A stretch of 64,000 nt of DNA from an uncultured Candidatus Rokubacteria bacterium (GCA_963805625.1 CAWDVE010000024.1:115093-179092); one strand, 5' to 3'; shown: positions 44,116 through 63,098, counted from the first letter of the stretch. Notes: generated from the sequence alone by a model not told the origin. Numbers and translations are program-made.

Positions 44116-44299
44116 GGAGTGTCCCTCGCACCGGGACCCGGCTCCGCCTCGCCTCGCCGCCCGCTCCTTGACTGGGCGCCCCACGCCGGCGCAGGATCGC
44201 GGGGGTGAGCCGGCGCTCGGGGTCGCCCCCGGGGGCTGGGGCCGGCCGACGGGGAGGCAGGAGGAGGCTGGACCTCAGCTCCGCCCGCAGAGGTGGCGC

Positions 44300-44490
44300 T
44301 AATCGTTCCTGCGCACAACACCGCGGCCACGAGCCGAGCCATGGCCGCCACGGACGCCAGCAGTCCGCGACCCAGATGCAGAGCGTCGGCCATGAAGGGG
44401 AAGAGCACGCCGAAGGCGACGGTCAGGACACCGTACGAGAGAAGATGCGAGACGAAGGCGCCGCCGACAACGACCCACCCGTAGAACACC
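44300..44490 (-). pseudogene. MFS transporter N-terminal fragment
   Basis: FYGWVVVG..AFGVLFPFMADALHLGR. Confidence 0.55.
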
Positions 44491-52794: not shown

Positions 52795-53148
52795 TGATGC
52801 AGGGCCTCCTTCCTGCCGGCGCATAGGGCGCATAGAAGGAACGATTAACGCCACCTCCGCGAAGCGGCCGGCCAGGTCCGGCCTCCCCCCGAAGCCTGCC
52901 CTGACCGCCGTGGCGGCCCGCCTCGATGGGCGAGGGCGAGCGGCGACCTCGCGAGCGCCGGCTGACCCCGCGTCATCCTGCGCCGGCGCGGGGAGGCCCC
53001 AAAGGGGGACCCAGTGGGTTCACCTGTTGGAGCCGGGCATCCGCAATCTCGGGCCCTCCGCGCCTGGATGCCGAAGGTTGCAGGCACGGACGAAGGTCGG
53101 CCCGAGGCGTCCACGCTGAATCCTCGCTACGAGTCCACACGACCAGAA

Positions 53149-53201
53149 GATATCGGCCCTCGCACGGCCAAACGCCGGTTCGAATCCCGATGGAGCCACC
53201 A
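53149..53201 (+). pseudogene. degenerate tRNA 3' fragment (Glu-like), possible att remnant
   Basis: GGCC-CTCGCAC-GGCC anticodon arm, GGTTCGAATCCC T arm, TGGAGCC-A-CCA end; no matching 5' acceptor strand or D arm. Confidence 0.65.
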
Positions 53202-55697: not shown

Positions 55698-56105
55698 TCA
55701 TGGGCACGGCACCGGCGCCCTTCCCGGATCACGCGGGACATCCTCGTGAGTCACGACGGCCTCGACGCCGCCGACGGGATGCACCCGTGCGAGGGGGCCG
55801 ATCCACGGCGCGGTAACGGGCCCCTCCTTGACGTAGAGCCGGCCGGCGGGCGTCACCGTGCCGATCCGGGTGCCATCGAGGTCGAACGCGGCCACGTTGG
55901 AGGCGAGCAGGCCACTCCATGCGTCGGTGTTGGGCCCCTCTCTCACCAGAAAGTGGCCGTTGGTCTTCAGCATGGCCATGCGCGCGCCGTCGAGCTGGAA
56001 CGCGGCGACGCCCTCGCCTTCTCGGATCCAAGCGGCCGGTCCCACCTCGGCCGTGAACAACACGTCGTCAACGGTCAGCACCGCCATCCGGGTCACGGTC
56101 GACAT
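55698..56105 (-). CDS. hypothetical protein with ~37-aa internal repeats (propeller-blade-like), perhaps truncated
   Basis: VAAFQLDGARMAML..LVREG..W / VAAFDLDGTRIGTV..YVKEG..W; GAGGAGG RBS. Confidence 0.65.
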   Translation of the reverse strand: MSTVTRMAVLTVDDVLFTAEVGPAAWIREGEGVAAFQLDGARMAMLKTNGHFLVREGPNTDAWSGLLASNVAAFDLDGTRIGTVTPAGRLYVKEGPVTAPWIGPLARVHPVGGVEAVVTHEDVPRDPGRAPVPCP

Positions 56106-56147
56106 GGCCCGCCCTCCTCTGCAGACTCGGGTTCACACAGATCGGTA

Positions 56148-56270
56148 ACCCGACCGGAACGTGATGCGCGCCAGGCTTCAGGCAGACGCGGCCTGCCTGG
56201 CGTCAGTCGGGTGTGGCGAGGAGGGCGCTTAGGGCGCGGGGCGAATCAGGCAGAGCAGCGGATGCGGACT
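56148..56270 (-). repeat. ~120-bp block, inverted copy of 59959-60080
   Basis: Shared ..CCTGATTCGCCCCGCGCCCTAAGCG..GACGCCAGGC..CCGCGTCTGCCTGARGCCTGGCGC..CATCACRTTCCGGTCGGGT. Confidence 0.9.
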
Positions 56271-56513
56271 CGAACGGAGGCGTGGGACCGAGGACTCTGG
56301 TGCACAAGGGGCGCTGGAGGTCCGATTCCTGACGAACGGCGTCACGCGCCTCGACACCGGGCCGATGTCCGTGTGAAACTCATCGGACACCTCGACAAGC
56401 GCGACCGTCGGTAAACTTGCGGTCTCGGTATCCGCGCCGGCCGCTCTGATCGAGAGCCGAGCGTCAAGGAGGACGCACACAAGAAGCGTGACGAGCACCA
56501 CCCGTCCCGTCAT
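56229..56513 (-). CDS. putative leader/arrest peptide, copy 1 (94 aa)
   Basis: Hydrophobic N-terminus, DIGPVSRR, ends SSPHPLLCLIRPAP-TAA; paralog at 59710. Confidence 0.8.
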   Translation of the reverse strand: MTGRVVLVTLLVCVLLDARLSIRAAGADTETASLPTVALVEVSDEFHTDIGPVSRRVTPFVRNRTSSAPCAPESSVPRLRSSPHPLLCLIRPAP

Positions 56514-56520
56514 TGATGTC

Positions 56521-56549
56521 ACGATAGGGTGCTGGGCCACGGCTGTCAA
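56521..56549 (-). promoter_or_regulatory. sigma-70 promoter, likely leaderless
   Basis: TTGACA-N17-TATCGT-N7-ATG. Confidence 0.75.
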
Positions 56550-56777
56550 CGTCCCCGGCATCGGCGGGTCCGGACCCGGCCCGGAGCAGCGAGTCGAGAA
56601 CCCGCCGGCTGGGTGTCACGGCCTGCCGCGGCCTGTGCCGGCCGCTTCGGCCGGGCCGTGTCGGAGACGCCGTGGTGCCGTGTTCTGGAGCCTGGCCGTG
56701 CACGGCCGTCGCGCTGCAACCTGGCCCGGTCCTGCCAACGCGTACACCGCCGGCCGCCGAGAGGACTCGCTCGCGCG

Positions 56778-59483
56778 ATGACCCTCGGAACCCATCTTCG
56801 CATCGGCGCCCTGTTCCTCACGCTCGTGAGCGTCTACACGTGGCCCCTTGTCTGTGACCCTGCGCATTTGCTGCCGGCGGGTGCCGACCCTCGGCTCTTC
56901 AGTTGGGTGCTTCTCACCATGTTCCGAAATCTTGTGACGGACCCGGCGCTGCTCTTTCACGGCAACGCCCTCTACCCGATCGGCAGCAGCCTGGCCCTCG
57001 CGGAGCCGCTGGTCGTTCCCGCCCTGATGGCCGGCCCTGTGTTTGTCCTCACGCAGAACCCGGTCCTCGCCTACAACCTCACGTTGATCCTCTTCTGGGC
57101 GCTGTCCGGCTGGGCGATGTACGCGGTGGCCTTCTGGCTGACGCGACAGCACTCGGCCGCGTTTGTCGCGGGCGTGATCTTCGCCTTCGCGCCATATCGC
57201 ATGGATCACTACCGCGAGTTCCAGATGGAGATGGCGTTCGGCATTCCCCTGGCCCTCTATGCGCTGGTGCGTTTCCTGGAAACGCAACGGATGCGGTATC
57301 TCGTTGCCCTCCTGGTCGTCTTCGGCTTGCAGGCCGCTTCCGTCTGGTACTACGCGATCATCTCGAGCCTTGGCCTCAGCATCGTGGCGCTCCAGGTCAC
57401 CGCCCTCCGGTGGACGGGCTTCCGGCTCCGCGCCTTGGGTGCCGCGGGTCTGGGGCTCCTGGGACTGGCGCTGGTGCTGTACCCGGTGGCGGCGCCCTAT
57501 TTTCGGATGCGGCAGGAGCTGGACTATCGTCGCGACCTCGACGACGCGGTGCGCCGTTCGGCCGACGTCCTGTCCTACGTGGAGGCTCGTGCCAACTGGC
57601 TCTACCGAAGCTTCACCGTGGAGCGCGACTGGGAAGCATCGCTCTTCCTGGGGGTCGCGGGACTCCTGCTGGTGGCCCCGGGTCTCTTGTGGCTGCGGCG
57701 CGGGCCCGGTGCCGCCGCGCGAACCCGAGCTGAGCGATGGCTGGCGGTGGGGATCTGGCTGCTCTTGGGACTGAGTCTGTTCGCTCTCCTGGTTCGCGGG
57801 CGCGTCTACGTTGGTTTTTTCCGGATCGTCCTGCCCTTCACGGCGTGCGGTGTGGCCCTCCTCCTTGCCATGTTCGCTCGACATGCGTCCGAGGGATGGC
57901 GCCGATGGCACGCGGGCGTGGTCGATCGCCGCCTGTCTGACCGCGACTGGGTGACGATACTCCTGGGCCTGGCCGGTTTCGCGTTCTTCCTGTCACTCGG
58001 GCCGATTGTCGCCCTTGGCGGGAGAGCTTTGGGGAGTGGTCTGTATGCCTGGCTGTGGCCCTACCTCATTCTTCTGCACGCCATCCGGGGCCCGACGCGC
58101 ATCGGCGTGCTGTTCCTCTTCAGCGGCGCCCTGCTTGCGGCGTTGGGCGTCACGCGGCTGCGCGCTGGGTGGCCCGCCCGACGATATCGGGGGCTGATGG
58201 CGCTGCTGGGCGTCGGCCTCCTGCTCGAATATGCATGGATGCCCTTGCCATACGAGACGGTCCCACCGTTCGCTCGTCCCGTCGACCAGGTGCTGCGTGC
58301 CGACCCCCGGCCAGCCGCCGTGCTCGAGTGGCCCACGAATGTCCCTGAGACCGACGCGGACGCGATGTTCCGGTCGCTCAGTCATGGGAAGTATGTCGTG
58401 AACGGGTTCTCCGGCTTCGTGCCGGCGCTGATCCGCGACTTGTCTCTCGCGCTCACGACACCGGGACCGATCTTCCCCGTTCCGGAGGCCCAGGCCGCAC
58501 TTCGTCAGATCTATCCGCTGCGCTACCTCATCGTCCGGCTTGAGGACCCGGCGCTCAGCGAGGAGTGGCGGGCCACCTGGCGGGCCGTGCGGCTCCGGCC
58601 GCCTTCCCTGCTCACGTTCCGGGGCACGTTCGGTTCGGACGACCTTTACGAGATTACGCCGACGCCCGAGCGAGGCCTTCGGCTGGAACGCTGGGTGTCG
58701 TACGGCGTCCTGCATCGGCATCCCGTGGCGACGGTGCGGCTTCGCCCGCTCGCGGAGACCGCGTGCTGCGATCAATGGGTAGATGTGCTCCTCAATGATT
58801 CCGTGGTGCGCCGGATCCCGCTCAACCGTGAAGCGACAGATACCGTGGTTCTCACCTCGCCGGTCTTTCAGGCCGCGCCGAATGTCATCACGATTCGATA
58901 CGGCTACCGGCGCGCGCCGGGGACCCTGAACGATTCGTTCCGCATCGGGACGACCGGCGCCCGGAGCTCAGGAGACCTGCGGGTGGTGAGCGTGGGCCAG
59001 CCTCACGGGAGCGCGAGTTCTATCTCGCTCAATGGCGTGGAGTGCTCTCCGGATCGGCGGGGCTACAATCTGGTGGCCGTCGACACGACCGGATACGTCG
59101 TCGATGCGAAGGCGTTCGATACCTTCGCGGACGCCGCCGCCGCCGCCGAGCTGGCCGCCTGGGTGGGGTCCTTGCCCCTGGGGACCATCGTTGCGGGCGC
59201 CGTACGGGACGAGGGGTCCGGACGGTTGACCGCGGAGGCCGTCACGGCACTCGGGCAGCTCGGCGTCACGGGGGATCTGCGCGGCCGGTTTCGAGAGGCG
59301 CACGCGTTCATCGGGGTGAAAGGTGCGTCGCCAGGGACCGCTCTTGAGGCGCTCGGCCCCCAGCCGGTGAAGCTTCTGGTCGGGGATCCTCCCGAAGAGA
59401 CGGGCCTCGAGTTGCTCGAGTTCGCGCTTGAATCTGGGCTCCGCGCGGAACCGGACGCGATGCGAAACGTCCACGGCCGATAG
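56778..59483 (+). CDS. large multi-pass membrane protein (GT-C/YfhO-like) with a C-terminal ILEI-like domain
   Basis: TWPL..DP, LAYN, FAFAPYR, VNGFSGF; C-terminal RRGYNLV..FDT..AVRDEG..FIGVKG. Confidence 0.75.
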   Translation: MTLGTHLRIGALFLTLVSVYTWPLVCDPAHLLPAGADPRLFSWVLLTMFRNLVTDPALLFHGNALYPIGSSLALAEPLVVPALMAGPVFVLTQNPVLAYNLTLILFWALSGWAMYAVAFWLTRQHSAAFVAGVIFAFAPYRMDHYREFQMEMAFGIPLALYALVRFLETQRMRYLVALLVVFGLQAASVWYYAIISSLGLSIVALQVTALRWTGFRLRALGAAGLGLLGLALVLYPVAAPYFRMRQELDYRRDLDDAVRRSADVLSYVEARANWLYRSFTVERDWEASLFLGVAGLLLVAPGLLWLRRGPGAAARTRAERWLAVGIWLLLGLSLFALLVRGRVYVGFFRIVLPFTACGVALLLAMFARHASEGWRRWHAGVVDRRLSDRDWVTILLGLAGFAFFLSLGPIVALGGRALGSGLYAWLWPYLILLHAIRGPTRIGVLFLFSGALLAALGVTRLRAGWPARRYRGLMALLGVGLLLEYAWMPLPYETVPPFARPVDQVLRADPRPAAVLEWPTNVPETDADAMFRSLSHGKYVVNGFSGFVPALIRDLSLALTTPGPIFPVPEAQAALRQIYPLRYLIVRLEDPALSEEWRATWRAVRLRPPSLLTFRGTFGSDDLYEITPTPERGLRLERWVSYGVLHRHPVATVRLRPLAETACCDQWVDVLLNDSVVRRIPLNREATDTVVLTSPVFQAAPNVITIRYGYRRAPGTLNDSFRIGTTGARSSGDLRVVSVGQPHGSASSISLNGVECSPDRRGYNLVAVDTTGYVVDAKAFDTFADAAAAAELAAWVGSLPLGTIVAGAVRDEGSGRLTAEAVTALGQLGVTGDLRGRFREAHAFIGVKGASPGTALEALGPQPVKLLVGDPPEETGLELLEFALESGLRAEPDAMRNVHGR

Positions 59484-59672
59484 ACGAGAGGGGCCCCGGT
59501 GCTGAGTCGGTCCGTTGCCATGACTCACACCGGCTCGATCCTTCGCCACGCGGCCCCTCGTAGCTTCCTGAGCCCGCTGACGGAGTGACGTGCCGCGGAT
59601 CGGCTGGTCTGTACCTCCTCCCGTGGGGCGGAGTCTTCCGTCAGGCCCCGGCGAGCGATTGAGCGTTTCCGG

Positions 59673-59702
59673 TTGACAGTCTCCCGCTTGACCCTGTACG
59701 GT
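59673..59702 (+). promoter_or_regulatory. sigma-70 promoter, likely leaderless
   Basis: TTGACA-N18-TACGGT-N7-GTG. Confidence 0.7.
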
Positions 59703-59709
59703 CGAGTTC

Positions 59710-60000
59710 GTGAAGCTGCGGTGGTCCATCCTGGTCATTCTCGGTCTCTGGCTTGTCCTCCAAGTGGGTCTGCCCGCTGAGGCGCCGGCCACATTCTCCG
59801 AGTCTCTGACGGGGATCAGCAGTGAGGCGTGTGAAGGCTTCGGCGAGGCCAGCAGGGACATCGGGCCGGCATCCAGGCGCCTGAGTCGGTTCGCGGCGAA
59901 CCGGATGGCCCGCGTCCAGGTCGGCGTGCACATGCCTGTTGCCTCCCAGCAGAACTCCAGTCCGCATCCGCTGTTCCGCCTGATTCGCCCCGCGCCCTAA
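59710..60000 (+). CDS. putative leader/arrest peptide, copy 2 (96 aa)
   Basis: Signal peptide ..LPAEA, DIGPASRR, ends SSPHPLFRLIRPAP-TAA. Confidence 0.8.
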   Translation: MKLRWSILVILGLWLVLQVGLPAEAPATFSESLTGISSEACEGFGEASRDIGPASRRLSRFAANRMARVQVGVHMPVASQQNSSPHPLFRLIRPAP

Positions 60001-60080
60001 GCGCTCTCCCGGCCGACCGGACCGACGCCAGGCCGCCCGCGTCTGCCTGAGGCCTGGCGCTCATCACATTCCGGTCGGGT
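59959..60080 (+). repeat. ~120-bp block, inverted copy of 56148-56270
   Basis: Direct base comparison; conservation extends ~80 nt past the stop codon. Confidence 0.9.
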
Positions 60081-60417
60081 CACTCGAGGCTCTCGCTCTT
60101 GCCCCTGAGTCGAGACCGACGGAGGAGCCATGCGTGGACGGGAGGCGTGCCGTGGGCGAATCGCGCGAGACCGAGGCGGTGAGCGGCATCGGAGGCGCGC
60201 TCGATGGGGGGCGGCGGCGCCTGGAGCGCTCTGAGGACCGAGGTGTCCCAATCCGGTCGGAGAAACCGTGGGTCGAAGGCGAGCAGGGTCCGCTCGCCTG
60301 GGCTCCGGGCGGGAGGAGCATGAGCACGACGGGGCCGGCTGAGATGTTGCCCGGGAGGTCCGTACTCCATCTGGGACCACTGATTCGCCATCTGAGGGTC
60401 CGTCAATGGCTCGATCT

Positions 60418-61647
60418 GTGAGCGTCGCGGCTCAGCTGAGGACGAGCCCGCCAGGTTTGGATGCGCAACAATCCAGCCTGCGCGTCTTGATGGTGGCGCC
60501 GACGCCGTTCTTCGGCGATCGCGGCTGTCACATCCGGATCCTTGAGCAAGCGCGCGCGCTTCGCCGCCTCGGCGTCGAGATCTTGCTGGCCACGTACCAC
60601 GTCGGGCGCGACGTCCCTGACGTCCCGACGGTTCGAACACCGCGCGTGCCCTGGGTGCGCGCCTTGCCCATCGGGTTCTCCATCCACAAGCTGTATCTTG
60701 ACGGCCTCCTGTTCGCGGCCACGCTTCGGGCGGCGCGGCGCTTCCGGCCGGACCTCCTTCATGGCCACCTCCACGAGGGCGCCGTGATCGCGTCGGTCGT
60801 CGGCCGCCTCGTCGGGCGGCCGGCCGTCGGAGACCTCCAGGGCAGCGTGACGGGGGAGATGGTCGCCCACGGCCACATGCCCGCGAGGGGTCCGCTACCG
60901 CTGATGGTGCGCGCGCTGGAGCGCTGTGTCGTCCGATGGTCCAGTCGGCTCCTTCCATCGTCCTCGAACTTTGCCCGCGAGTTGGTCGACGCCTGGGGAG
61001 TCCCGCACGGGCGTGTCGTCCTGCTTCCCGACGGGACCGACCCGGAGGCCTTCCGCGCCCCAGCCGGCCTCGACGAGCTCCGCGACCGCCTGGGTTTGGT
61101 CGGCAAGCGTGTCGTCGTGTACCTCGGCGTGCTGACCGACTACCAGGGCGTCGATGACCTCCTCGCCGCGTGGCCGACGGTCACCGCCAGCGTGCCGGAC
61201 GCGCACCTCCTCCTGATGGGATACCCCAACGTGGAGCGCTACCGAACCCGGGTCGCCACGTTGGGTCTCGGCGGGTCGGTCACCGTCACCGGACGCATCG
61301 AGTACCGGGAGGCGCCGGACTACCTCGCCCTTGGCGATGTCGCCGTGAGCGCCAAGCACGTGAGCACGGAAGCGAACGGCAAGCTTCTCAACTACATGGC
61401 GATGGGGCTGCCCGTGGTCGCCTATGACGGACCGGTCTCGCGGGAGCTCCTCGGCGTGCACGGGGTCTTCGTGCCGATGCGAAACGTGCCGGCCCTCGGC
61501 GCCGCCCTCGCCCGGCTTCTCCGCGACCCGCAGGAGCAGAAGCTCCGCGGCCAGGCTCTGCGGGAGCGCGTCGTCACCCGCTTCGCCTCGTCGACGCTGG
61601 CCGGGCGCCTCCTGGAGGTCTACCGAGACGTCCTCGGGAAGCCATAG
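60418..61647 (+). CDS. family 4 glycosyltransferase
   Basis: APTPFFGDRG, HGHLHEG, KLLNYMAMGLPVV. Confidence 0.9.
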   Translation: MSVAAQLRTSPPGLDAQQSSLRVLMVAPTPFFGDRGCHIRILEQARALRRLGVEILLATYHVGRDVPDVPTVRTPRVPWVRALPIGFSIHKLYLDGLLFAATLRAARRFRPDLLHGHLHEGAVIASVVGRLVGRPAVGDLQGSVTGEMVAHGHMPARGPLPLMVRALERCVVRWSSRLLPSSSNFARELVDAWGVPHGRVVLLPDGTDPEAFRAPAGLDELRDRLGLVGKRVVVYLGVLTDYQGVDDLLAAWPTVTASVPDAHLLLMGYPNVERYRTRVATLGLGGSVTVTGRIEYREAPDYLALGDVAVSAKHVSTEANGKLLNYMAMGLPVVAYDGPVSRELLGVHGVFVPMRNVPALGAALARLLRDPQEQKLRGQALRERVVTRFASSTLAGRLLEVYRDVLGKP

Positions 61648-61671: not shown

Positions 61672-63098
61672 ATGGTCTTTAGCTCGCCGATCTTTCTGTT
61701 TCTTTTCCTGCCGGTCGTGCTGGCGCTGCATGCGGGGATGCCACGCGGCGCCCGTAACCTTCTCTTACTCGTCGCGAGCCTCCTCTTCTACGCCTGGGGA
61801 GAGCCCGGGTTCATCCCAGTCCTGCTCGGAGCCCTGGCCCTCAACTGGGCGCTCGGCTGGGCCGTGGGCACCGCGCCGGTTCGGTGGCGACCGACCCTCG
61901 TCGCGCTGGCCGTCGCCCTGAATCTCGGGCTCCTGGTCACGTGCAAGTACGGGGCGTGGCTGGTCGCCAATTTCAACTCGGTCCTGTCGCCTTCGGCGGA
62001 CCGGCGTTCCCGGTGCCGCGCGGTGCCGTCATCATCGGTCTGTCGTTTTTCACGTTCCAGGCGCTCTCGTACGTGATCGACGTGGCCCGCCGTGAGGCGG
62101 CGATCCAGCGGAACCCGCTCACCCTCGCGCTCTACCTGGTGCTCTTCCCCCAGCTCATCGCCGGGCCCATCGTGCGCTACCACGACATCGCCGGCCAGCT
62201 CGCCCATCGGCAGCTGACCCGGCCCGAGGTCGCCCTCGGCGTGCACCGGTTCATCCTGGGACTCGGCAAGAAGGTGCTCATCGCCAACCCGGTCGCGGTG
62301 CCGGCCGACGCGATCTTCGCCCTTCCGACGGACCAGCTGACGGTGGGCCTCGCCTGGCTCGCGGCGCTCTGTTACACGCTCCAGATCTACTTCGATTTCT
62401 CCGGGTACTCGGACATGGCGGTCGGGCTGGGCCACCTGTTCGGGTTCCGGCTCCCAGAGAATTTCCGGCACCCGTACGTCGCCCGAGGCCTGACCGACTT
62501 CTGGCGGCGCTGGCACATCTCGCTGTCAACCTGGTTCCGCGACTACCTCTACATCCCGCTCGGCGGGAACCGCGTCGGCCCGGCACGCGTCTACGCAAAC
62601 CTCTTGGTCGTGTTCCTGCTCTGCGGGCTCTGGCACGGGGCGAGCTGGACCTTCGTCGTGTGGGGGCTCTATCACGGCGCGTTCCTGGTCCTGGAGCGTC
62701 TCGGGCTCGGCCGGCTCCTCGCCGGCCTGCGGCCTCTGATCGTTCACGGCTACACGCTCGTGGTCGTGATCGTCGGCTGGGTCCTGTTCCGGGCCCCGAC
62801 GCTCGAGGCCGGGTGGGCGATGCTCCAGGCGATGGCGGGTCTGGGCCTTGGAACAAGCGCCGAGCATGATGTGAGGCTCCACTGGGACACGGGCGTGGCG
62901 CTGAGCTTCGGCGCCGGTGTCCTCGGCGTGCTCCCGTTTGGCGCGGCCCTGGCGCGGTGGCGACGCCGCGTCGAGGCGTCGTGGCTGGACGACGCAGTGG
63001 CGGCTGGGCACGTCCTGACGCTGGGGGTGGTCCTGCTCGGGTGCGCGATGATGCTCGCCGCGGGCACCCACAACCCGTTCATCTACTTTCGCTTCTAA
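61672..63098 (+). CDS. MBOAT O-acyltransferase (AlgI-like), frameshifted near 61990
   Basis: MVFSSPIFLFLF, GLSFFTFQ, FPQLIAGPI, YFDFSGYSD, FWRRWHISLS, GLWHGA, FIYFRF. Confidence 0.88.

Follow-up and report, generated by a model that had tools for sequence, protein, structure and literature searches.

Small upstream open reading frames (ORFs) that join a localization signal to a stalling C-terminus are known in two forms close to the locus described here. In the Bacteroidota, uDF_NAP-stop and uA_NSP-stop carry a localization signal, require their stop codon and give a toeprint with the stop in the ribosomal A site (Fujiwara et al. 2024, PMC10987492). Arrest peptides of the RAPP/RGPP/RAGP type also precede genes outside protein export (PMC12992588). 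Here, we describe a 64,000-nucleotide stretch of an uncultured Candidatus Rokubacteria genome (GCA_963805625.1, CAWDVE010000024.1:115093-179092; hereafter the window), which contains two inverted copies of a leader ORF ending LIRPAP-stop (Table 1). We are highly confident that each copy is a real leader ORF, and we consider it probable that the leader works in cis as a translation-dependent switch. Our favored explanation, a pause at the Pro-stop that would hold open the Shine-Dalgarno sequence (SD) of the next gene, is one to which we give roughly even chances by analogy with the known systems.

The positions, inverted arrangement and translations of both copies proved to be as the initial annotation had given them. 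So did the promoter, TTGACA-17/18-TAnnnT with a start codon 7 nucleotides (nt) later, which is present in both copies. Scored with the codon usage of the genome, each leader ORF is the best of its six frames (copy 1 -0.12, copy 2 +0.06), and sequencing run X1, possibly the source sample, matched 55939-56381 and 59514-60014 without any difference, with 60202-60378 uncovered. Runs X2-X5 yielded short pieces only, and no RNA run was among those listed with the sequence, which has no bearing on expression. The two proteins are 36% identical and nearly collinear, and there is no third copy in the same genome. Genome-wide, the promoter-plus-start geometry TTGACA-N16-18-TAnnnT-N6-7-start is found at 23 sites, often heading well-scoring ORFs. 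Across 2763 starts, TAnnnT is enriched 6-10 nt before ATG (24-38 per position versus about 8 elsewhere), which indicates that leaderless genes are a real class in this genome. Two relatives from metagenomes, L110 and L139, both have TTGACA-17-TATAGT with a GTG 6 nt on, and a promoter-like TTGACA/TAnnnT lies 6-7 nt before the start in all four loci for which DNA is available. The proposal that a translated, probably exported (signal-like) and probably leaderless upstream ORF stands before envelope genes is supported.

To collect relatives, a profile of the two copies was searched with hmmsearch against 1.84 billion protein representatives. This gave three matches (self, P0002 and P0003), and a cluster look-up with two profile searches added P0004, P0005 and P0006. 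A metagenome scan for [HQ][PF]xxxLIRPAP-stop, with codons left free, returned 61 loci; L110 and L139 are true relatives (91 bits), and the remaining 59, at most 17 bits against the family profile, were rejected as chance. The family comprises nine proteins from about five lineages, with between-lineage identity of 26-48% among the eight that were aligned. LIRPAP forms the C-terminus in all nine, and the directly adjoining stop was seen in DNA for four. Since E31 and R56 are the only invariant columns besides LIRPAP among the eight aligned proteins, SSPHPL is not a family motif, and neither is DIGPxSRR, although the two copies carry both. The suggested check of relatives with LIRPAP-stop and the genes behind them was also run: both L110 and L139 lie directly before a GT4 glycosyltransferase gene, with MBOAT next in L110.

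No relative was found in the 250 other genomes of the phylum by DNA, hidden Markov model (HMM) or motif searches. The DNA search of 251 class genomes gave short chance matches only, the best non-self match of the HMM search in the same 251 had an E-value of 0.002 and internal stops, and the motif search of the phylum gave eight matches in 6 of 251 genomes, of which only the two window copies belong. A phmmer search with copy 1 found no relative, one scan of genome contigs gave none, another had no true relative among 30 loci, and viral contigs had none among 29. The leader proteins have no Pfam match. Similar endings were seen in two unrelated settings. L098, L109, L121 and L181 (Pedosphaera metagenome-assembled genome) have a longer unrelated ORF with QFIRPAP-stop followed by a CCCTCCC run and a low family-profile score, and a large protein of a different family ends VIRPAP-TGA at G000:C16:216470-216490 and in G238:C1, probably by coincidence.

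The leaders vary in sequence but hardly in design. N-terminal hydropathy is 2.6-3.5 in seven of the nine proteins, the other two having been called without their N-terminus. The distance from the hydrophobic N-terminus to the C-terminal end is 76-81 residues in eight proteins and 100 in one, and leader length is near-constant across the family. The ratio of nonsynonymous to synonymous change (dN/dS) of the leader body is 0.53-1.33 in six pairs, versus 0.17-0.24 for GT4, with the frame kept; the intergenic region 3' of the leader carries non-triplet indels. A near-neutral body together with a conserved frame, length and N-terminus points to a linker by which a functional tail is tethered to a targeting signal, and we infer that the body would serve as such rather than as a folded secreted protein. 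A CCC-TAA stop ends 1 of 2949 long ORFs in the genome (about 6 expected) versus four of four family loci, the tails of copy 2 and L139 show 0 of 7 codon differences at synonymous sites compared with 13 of 39 in the body, and the sole tail change observed among the loci is synonymous.

Pairing between the leader RNA and the downstream SD was compared with 117 control gene pairs of the genome and with all windows of the leader's own transcript (375 for copy 1, 387 for copy 2). The perfect 10-bp complement reported after the stop of copy 1 is confirmed: it is the best of its 375 windows and is stronger than in all 117 controls. The post-stop pairing of copy 2 does exist, but it is ordinary, being equalled or bettered in 69 of 387 windows and in 35 of 117 controls (22 of 117 for both L110 and L139). 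As a compensatory pairing it is not significant, and cognate pairs do no better than non-cognate ones. In copy 2, L110 and L139, the predicted partners of the SD are codons that lie 19-45 nt upstream of the stop or higher in the ORF. Predictions for full transcripts leave the downstream SD 0-16% unpaired, and folding is predicted to hide it in four of four loci. Removal of the tail and stop region lowers the predicted SD-opening energy by 3-11 kcal/mol, a drop matched by no control for copy 1 and L110, by 2 of 117 for copy 2 and by 14 of 117 for L139, which is within the control range. For copy 1, covering at least 9 nt from the first base of the stop cuts the predicted SD-opening energy from about 12 kcal/mol to no more than 2, and the assumed footprint of a terminating ribosome reaches those nucleotides.

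Two 7-bp stems after the stop are common to the four loci. Pairing is also possible between GAUUCG in the tail and YGAGUY, which lies 10-15 nt upstream of the SD, with a predicted probability of 0.88-1.0 in three of the four loci and 0 in copy 2 for the -45 fragment, and of 0.01-0.55 in full transcripts. Whole-segment folding z-scores are not significant (-0.49 and -1.46). There is no Rfam match at gathering score in the window and one chance match (E-value 2.5) outside the cassettes.

The place before GT4 is filled by another kind of leader in related genomes. Among 23 other distinct GT4 homologues (25 fetched loci, two pairs being split genes), four have in front of them a signal ORF of 93-100 amino acids (aa) that ends RAPPA-stop and has TAnnnT 6 nt upstream of the start codon. 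One of these four comes after the TolB-like gene that the window also carries, and most of the remaining homologues directly follow another gene. As same-genus genomes put RAPPA-stop leaders before homologous GT4 genes, this position can be regarded as a leader slot. The GT4 genes are homologues but not strict orthologues: a tree of 21 of 28 rows, from which seven that were short, were split or had not been extracted were left out, joins the window GT4 to copies in a leaderless context (100/99) and separates it from the clades of L110/L139 and of the RAPPA loci.

A profile of the RAPPA leaders found 14 loci in 8 of 183 genomes; 12 end RAPPA, one RSPPAA and one PIRSALS. They are 93-101 aa long and begin with a signal-like stretch; in most, TAnnnT precedes the start codon by 6-8 nt. 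All 14 have a TAG stop, and the signal is followed by a conserved acidic [YFH]DGD motif that might, speculatively, bind a divalent cation. Where a downstream gene was assigned (10 loci), four leaders precede GT4 and six precede PMT_2/ArnT-like genes, two of these six assigned by scanning and the others by near-identical N-termini. For RAPPA loci, the predicted SD-opening drop is above the control 90th percentile in 4 of 10. Judged from sequence, the genus repeatedly heads envelope glycosyltransferase genes with predicted leaderless exported ORFs, usually bearing the proven arrest motif. No homology between the LIRPAP and RAPPA families was detectable (hhalign 0.6%; cross-HMM scores at most 4.9 bits, compared with decoy maxima of 4.3-4.4).

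Several smaller observations concern these leaders. By eye, a short word after the stop seems common to both families, which is suggestive only. L228:38-316, the RAPPA-family locus that ends PIRSALS-stop, has last codons resembling those of LIRPAP and a score within the decoy range, and is a possible link between the families. The window's own genome holds a frameshifted RAPPA member at G000:C13 (about 538330-538640), and 38 candidates there include small hydrophobic-start ORFs ending HPRAPPSC, LPRAPPAA and RSPPVP on the minus strands of C13, C19 and C10.

Within the window, the relationship between the two copies is a mosaic. The 129-nt block of Table 1 takes in the final 15 codons and extends to about 83 nt beyond the stop. 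Over the body, copy 2 is nearer L139 (160/249 identical) than copy 1 (112/246), whereas in the 3' stem it is nearer copy 1 (59/67, versus 43/67 with L139). Because this 3' block appears to be converted, the two copies have SSPHPL in common. Inside it, a post-stop segment of about 16 nt has diverged (10/17 identical), which suggests that the segment was fitted to the SD of copy 1 itself. An invertible element or mobile repeat was ruled out, as there are two copies only, 88% identity covers just 129 nt and the frame is kept in distant relatives.

The explanation that we favor runs as follows. A ribosome that reaches the LIRPAP-stop of the leader would pause there, the last Pro occupying the P site and UAA the A site, with the nascent tail slowing peptide release as in uDF_NAP-stop and uA_NSP-stop, and the paused ribosome would cover RNA that otherwise hides the SD of the next gene. 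Export machinery that engages the signal could then pull the chain and end the pause. This is the weakest step and is drawn from tether geometry, the length of 76-100 residues permitting release by translocation force. Envelope glycosylation and acylation genes would accordingly be translated more when the leader is not pulled through. On the strength of the analogy, we see the question of a peptide-dependent pause at the Pro-stop as evenly balanced, while export load is a possible input that we lean against. A broader reading, which we offer tentatively and think rather unlikely, is that LIRPAP-UAA represents a new motif for arrest at termination, with codons that also serve as an RNA arm, and that one genus swaps it with RAPP arrest before the same glycosyltransferase genes to sense the state of the envelope rather than Sec traffic.

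A number of points weigh against the favored explanation. The tail codons, including the rare ATT (5.8%), are conserved at the nucleotide level too, and with the GAUUCG:YGAGUY pairing this means that RNA constraint alone may fix the tail residues. The invariance of the tail is also partly built in, since the scan that yielded L110 and L139 demanded LIRPAP-stop and the HMM scores partly reflect the tail. The suggested check for covariation in the 3' RNA gave a covariation term of 0, from three independent DNA lineages only. Because the SD partner lies 5' of the footprint in copy 2, L110 and L139, a single stalled ribosome may not free the SD there. The NAP/NSP-stop determinant, Asn at -3, is absent, its place being taken by Pro, and L228 in the RAPPA family ends PIRSALS, with no Pro-stop. 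Finally, the SD of copy 2, proposed as the ribosome-binding site of a glycosylation gene, is out of frame with GT4 as assembled.

A rival account has no arrest at all. Ordinary translation and termination of the leader would briefly unfold the SD-hiding helix, the tail would be an RNA arm and the signal peptide would merely dispose of the product or bring the mRNA to the membrane. The frozen synonymous sites of the tail, the GAUUCG:YGAGUY helix, the location of the SD partner in coding sequence at three of four loci and the report that RPAP causes no pause in E. coli elongation (bioRxiv 10.1101/2024.08.03.606492) all fit this account. We still find it unlikely, with a sizeable minority chance: the pairing covers about 6-11 of the 21 tail nt and leaves the final Pro-stop in all nine proteins unaccounted for, the sole tail change is synonymous and the parallel family has the proven arrest motif RAPP at the same position. 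Another possibility is that RPAP is an elongation arrest of the RAPP/RAGP type, in which Ala and Pro would fill the P and A sites, Arg would stand at -2 and pulling by Sec would bring release, which is close to what the initial annotation had in mind. RAPPA leaders occupy the same slot, the I-R-x-x-P spacing is that of SecM IRAGP, ApdA and ApdP partly tolerate a change from Ala to Pro at position 2 (PMC12992588) and Mannheimia SecM, RGSP, has Ser at the P-site position (PMC10987492). Our leaders are likewise small ORFs with a predicted N-terminal localization signal and a co-oriented downstream gene. RPAP, however, places Ala at the P-site position, outside the RAPP-like core (R/Q/H)-(A/G/D/S/P)-(P/G/S)-(P/G), and systematic mutagenesis found that P-site Pro in ApdA, ApdP and ApcA tolerates no substitution except Gly in ApdP (PMC12992588). 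RPAP is also the no-pause control of the E. coli reporter and is not avoided in ordinary proteins: in a crude stop-to-stop ORF set of this genome, RPAP occurs 98 times with 59 expected (1.67), while RAPP (0.34), RGPP, RAGP and RSPP are depleted (observed/expected 0.34-0.55). With a stop immediately after the motif in all nine proteins, unlike RAPPA-stop, and with genes other than Sec genes behind the leaders, the SecM/ApdA register and SecM-like targets are not supported, and we regard this arrest as improbable. If the leader stalls, a stall at the stop codon fits better.

There is a similarly slim chance that no regulation is involved, and that the leader is simply a small secreted protein of the ordinary kind whose 3' region is structured, the copies resembling each other only through local duplication and gene conversion. 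This would agree with the mosaic identity, with the patchy distribution in the phylum and with a tRNA-Glu scar 3 kb away. Selection on the residues of the body is, however, nearly absent, the tail persists in distant lineages and the diverged post-stop nucleotides inside the converted block match copy 1's own SD perfectly. We give very little credence to the idea that CCC-UAA-G is a shifty stop, at which +1 frameshifting carries ribosomes over the intergenic RNA to the next gene. CCC-UAA-G and an open +1 frame over the intergenic region are found in four of four loci, and CCC-UGA gives 15% +1 shifting in E. coli pheL (PMC3082878). The pheL shift was nevertheless found to be incidental. Of the ordinary stops in this genome, 65% are followed by 42 open codons in the +1 frame, which places the leaders within chance, and L110 and L139 do not agree in the phase of that frame relative to the next gene.

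As to the claimed link to cell-surface glycosylation genes, GT4 and MBOAT lie behind copy 2 and L110, and GT4 behind L139. Copy 1 is directly followed by a 135-aa gene with no Pfam, NCBIfam or PDB match. As assembled, the SD of copy 2 leads to ATG 60130 (33 aa) or GTG 60134 (95 aa); the 95-aa ORF may be a relay ORF, a decayed stretch or the product of an assembly indel. Since nearby genes also show frame breaks, the break before GT4 (60130-60480) may be an assembly indel. Further breaks, either indels or decay, are seen in MBOAT, the gene at 52854-51203, a second GT4 and a RAPPA leader elsewhere. Farther left, the 3' half of a tRNA-Glu-like gene ending CCA lies at 53157-53201 (+), with similar remnants on several contigs, and is likely to be an integration scar near the leader-cassette block. 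A dispersed element of about 200 nt is found at 52816-53020 (-) and about 44179-44310, with eight further matches in the genome; it sits just before gene starts in the three cases viewed and has no Rfam match.

Table 1. Features of the two leader cassettes, their surroundings and the RAPPA-stop leaders of related genomes
Feature	Position	Strand	Description
Copy 1 sigma70-like promoter	56521..56549	-	TTGACA 56549-56544, 17 nt, TATCGT; start codon 7 nt on; predicted leaderless
Copy 1 leader ORF, 94 aa	56229..56513	-	ATG 56513; basic residue and hydrophobic N-terminus, variable body, LIRPAP-TAA (TAA ends 56229)
Invariant tail codons (LIRPAP and TAA), copy 1	56229..56249	-	20-21 of 21 nt identical among 4 DNA loci
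Copy 1 post-stop anti-SD	56218..56227	-	Perfect 10-bp complement of downstream SD; predicted pairing 0.96-0.99 in full transcript
Copy 1 intergenic RNA domain	56145..56210	-	Conserved; outer 7-bp stem and inner 7-bp hairpin, stop region near SD (predicted)
SD of gene behind copy 1	56110..56119	-	Partner of post-stop anti-SD
135-aa ORF directly behind copy 1	55698..56105	-	No family match
LPG_synthase_TM/flippase-like gene	55741-54530	-	After 135-aa ORF
PD40/TolB-like gene	54558-53362	-	After LPG_synthase_TM/flippase-like gene
Frameshifted membrane-protein gene	52854-51203	-	After PD40/TolB-like gene; frame break about 52500
Large membrane protein with ILEI domain	56778..59483	+	Between cassettes; behind neither leader
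Copy 2 sigma70-like promoter	59673..59702	+	TTGACA 59673-59678, 18 nt, TACGGT; GTG 7 nt on; predicted leaderless
Copy 2 leader ORF, 96 aa	59710..60000	+	GTG 59710; signal-like N-terminus; LIRPAP-TAA, TAA 59998-60000
Putatively converted block, 129 nt	59956..60083	+	88% identical to 56273-56145; putative gene conversion between copies, from mosaic
SD behind copy 2	60121..60127	+	Predicted main pairing with codons 19-45 nt before stop, not post-stop segment
95-aa ORF	60134..60421	+	Weak coding signal; overlaps GT4 start
GT4 glycosyltransferase	60406..61647	+	Followed by MBOAT, then ALGX/SGNH protein
MBOAT	61672-63098	+	Split over two frames, break about 61975
RAPPA leaders	L221-L234 (G234, G235, G238, G240, G241, G243, G244, G247)		Before GT4 or ArnT-like PMT_2 genes

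Both signal-plus-arrest leaders before non-export genes (PMC12992588) and Pro-stop arrests before sec genes (PMC10987492) have already been published. In the literature searched, including most of the supplements of these two papers, we found no description of the LIRPAP-stop family, its envelope targets or its alternation with RAPPA. In the literature examined, secA and secDF are the only genes headed by published stop-codon arrest peptides that bear a signal (PMC10987492). If the favored explanation is true, an invariant six-residue Pro-stop tail ahead of operons for envelope modification would enlarge the range of motifs and of targets known for such peptides. The broader reading, if true, would add a natural swap between two arrest chemistries and take stop-codon arrest sensors beyond the sec genes. 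Motif screens based on RAPP are blind to LIRPAP-stop. The reach of the finding is limited by the small size of the family, with nine proteins found, and by an uncultured host.

Compared with known systems, the LIRPAP leaders resemble uDF_NAP-stop and uA_NSP-stop in being small upstream ORFs that have a signal at the N-terminus and a conserved Pro as the last residue before the stop, and NAP-stop likewise ends Ala-Pro-stop (PMC10987492). The NAP/NSP-stop peptides need Asn at -3, precede secDF or secA and are confined to the Bacteroidota, whereas the LIRPAP leaders have Pro at -3, a six-residue invariant stretch and a host that, to judge by the taxa of the nearest ESM Atlas clusters, probably belongs to the Rokubacteriales, and lie before envelope glycosyl/acyl-transferase operons (GT4/MBOAT) or the 135-aa gene of no known family rather than secA or secDF. 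With SecM, ApdA, ApdP, CruR and the Streptomyces RAPP/RGPP/RAGP set they have in common a signal, a variable linker, an Arg/Pro-rich C-terminus and RNA that, here by prediction, hides the SD (PMC7897499, PMC12992588). They differ from RAPP-type peptides in that positions 2 and 3 are swapped, which would place Ala in the P site, in that the proteome shows no depletion of the motif and in that the stop follows directly. Predicted SD hiding by RNA that a stalled ribosome would disrupt, as in SecM, is clear in copy 1, and the other three loci pair via tail codons, with L139 within the control range. The nearest named ESM Atlas clusters are DUF2946/CzcI-like leaders (0.92-0.93; only 80-83 of 256 features shared), such as CruR and CutF. 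Unlike those, the LIRPAP leaders have no Pfam match, no conserved Cys/His (CxxC or His metal) motif, no RAPP and no metal-uptake genes behind them. The RAPPA-stop family is alike in length, signal-like N-terminus, upstream TAnnnT and position before GT4, and differs in its canonical RAPP (12 of 14 loci, with RSPP in one), its [YFH]DGD motif and its TAG stop. The LIRPAP family is a member of neither named arrest family, but probably works like them.

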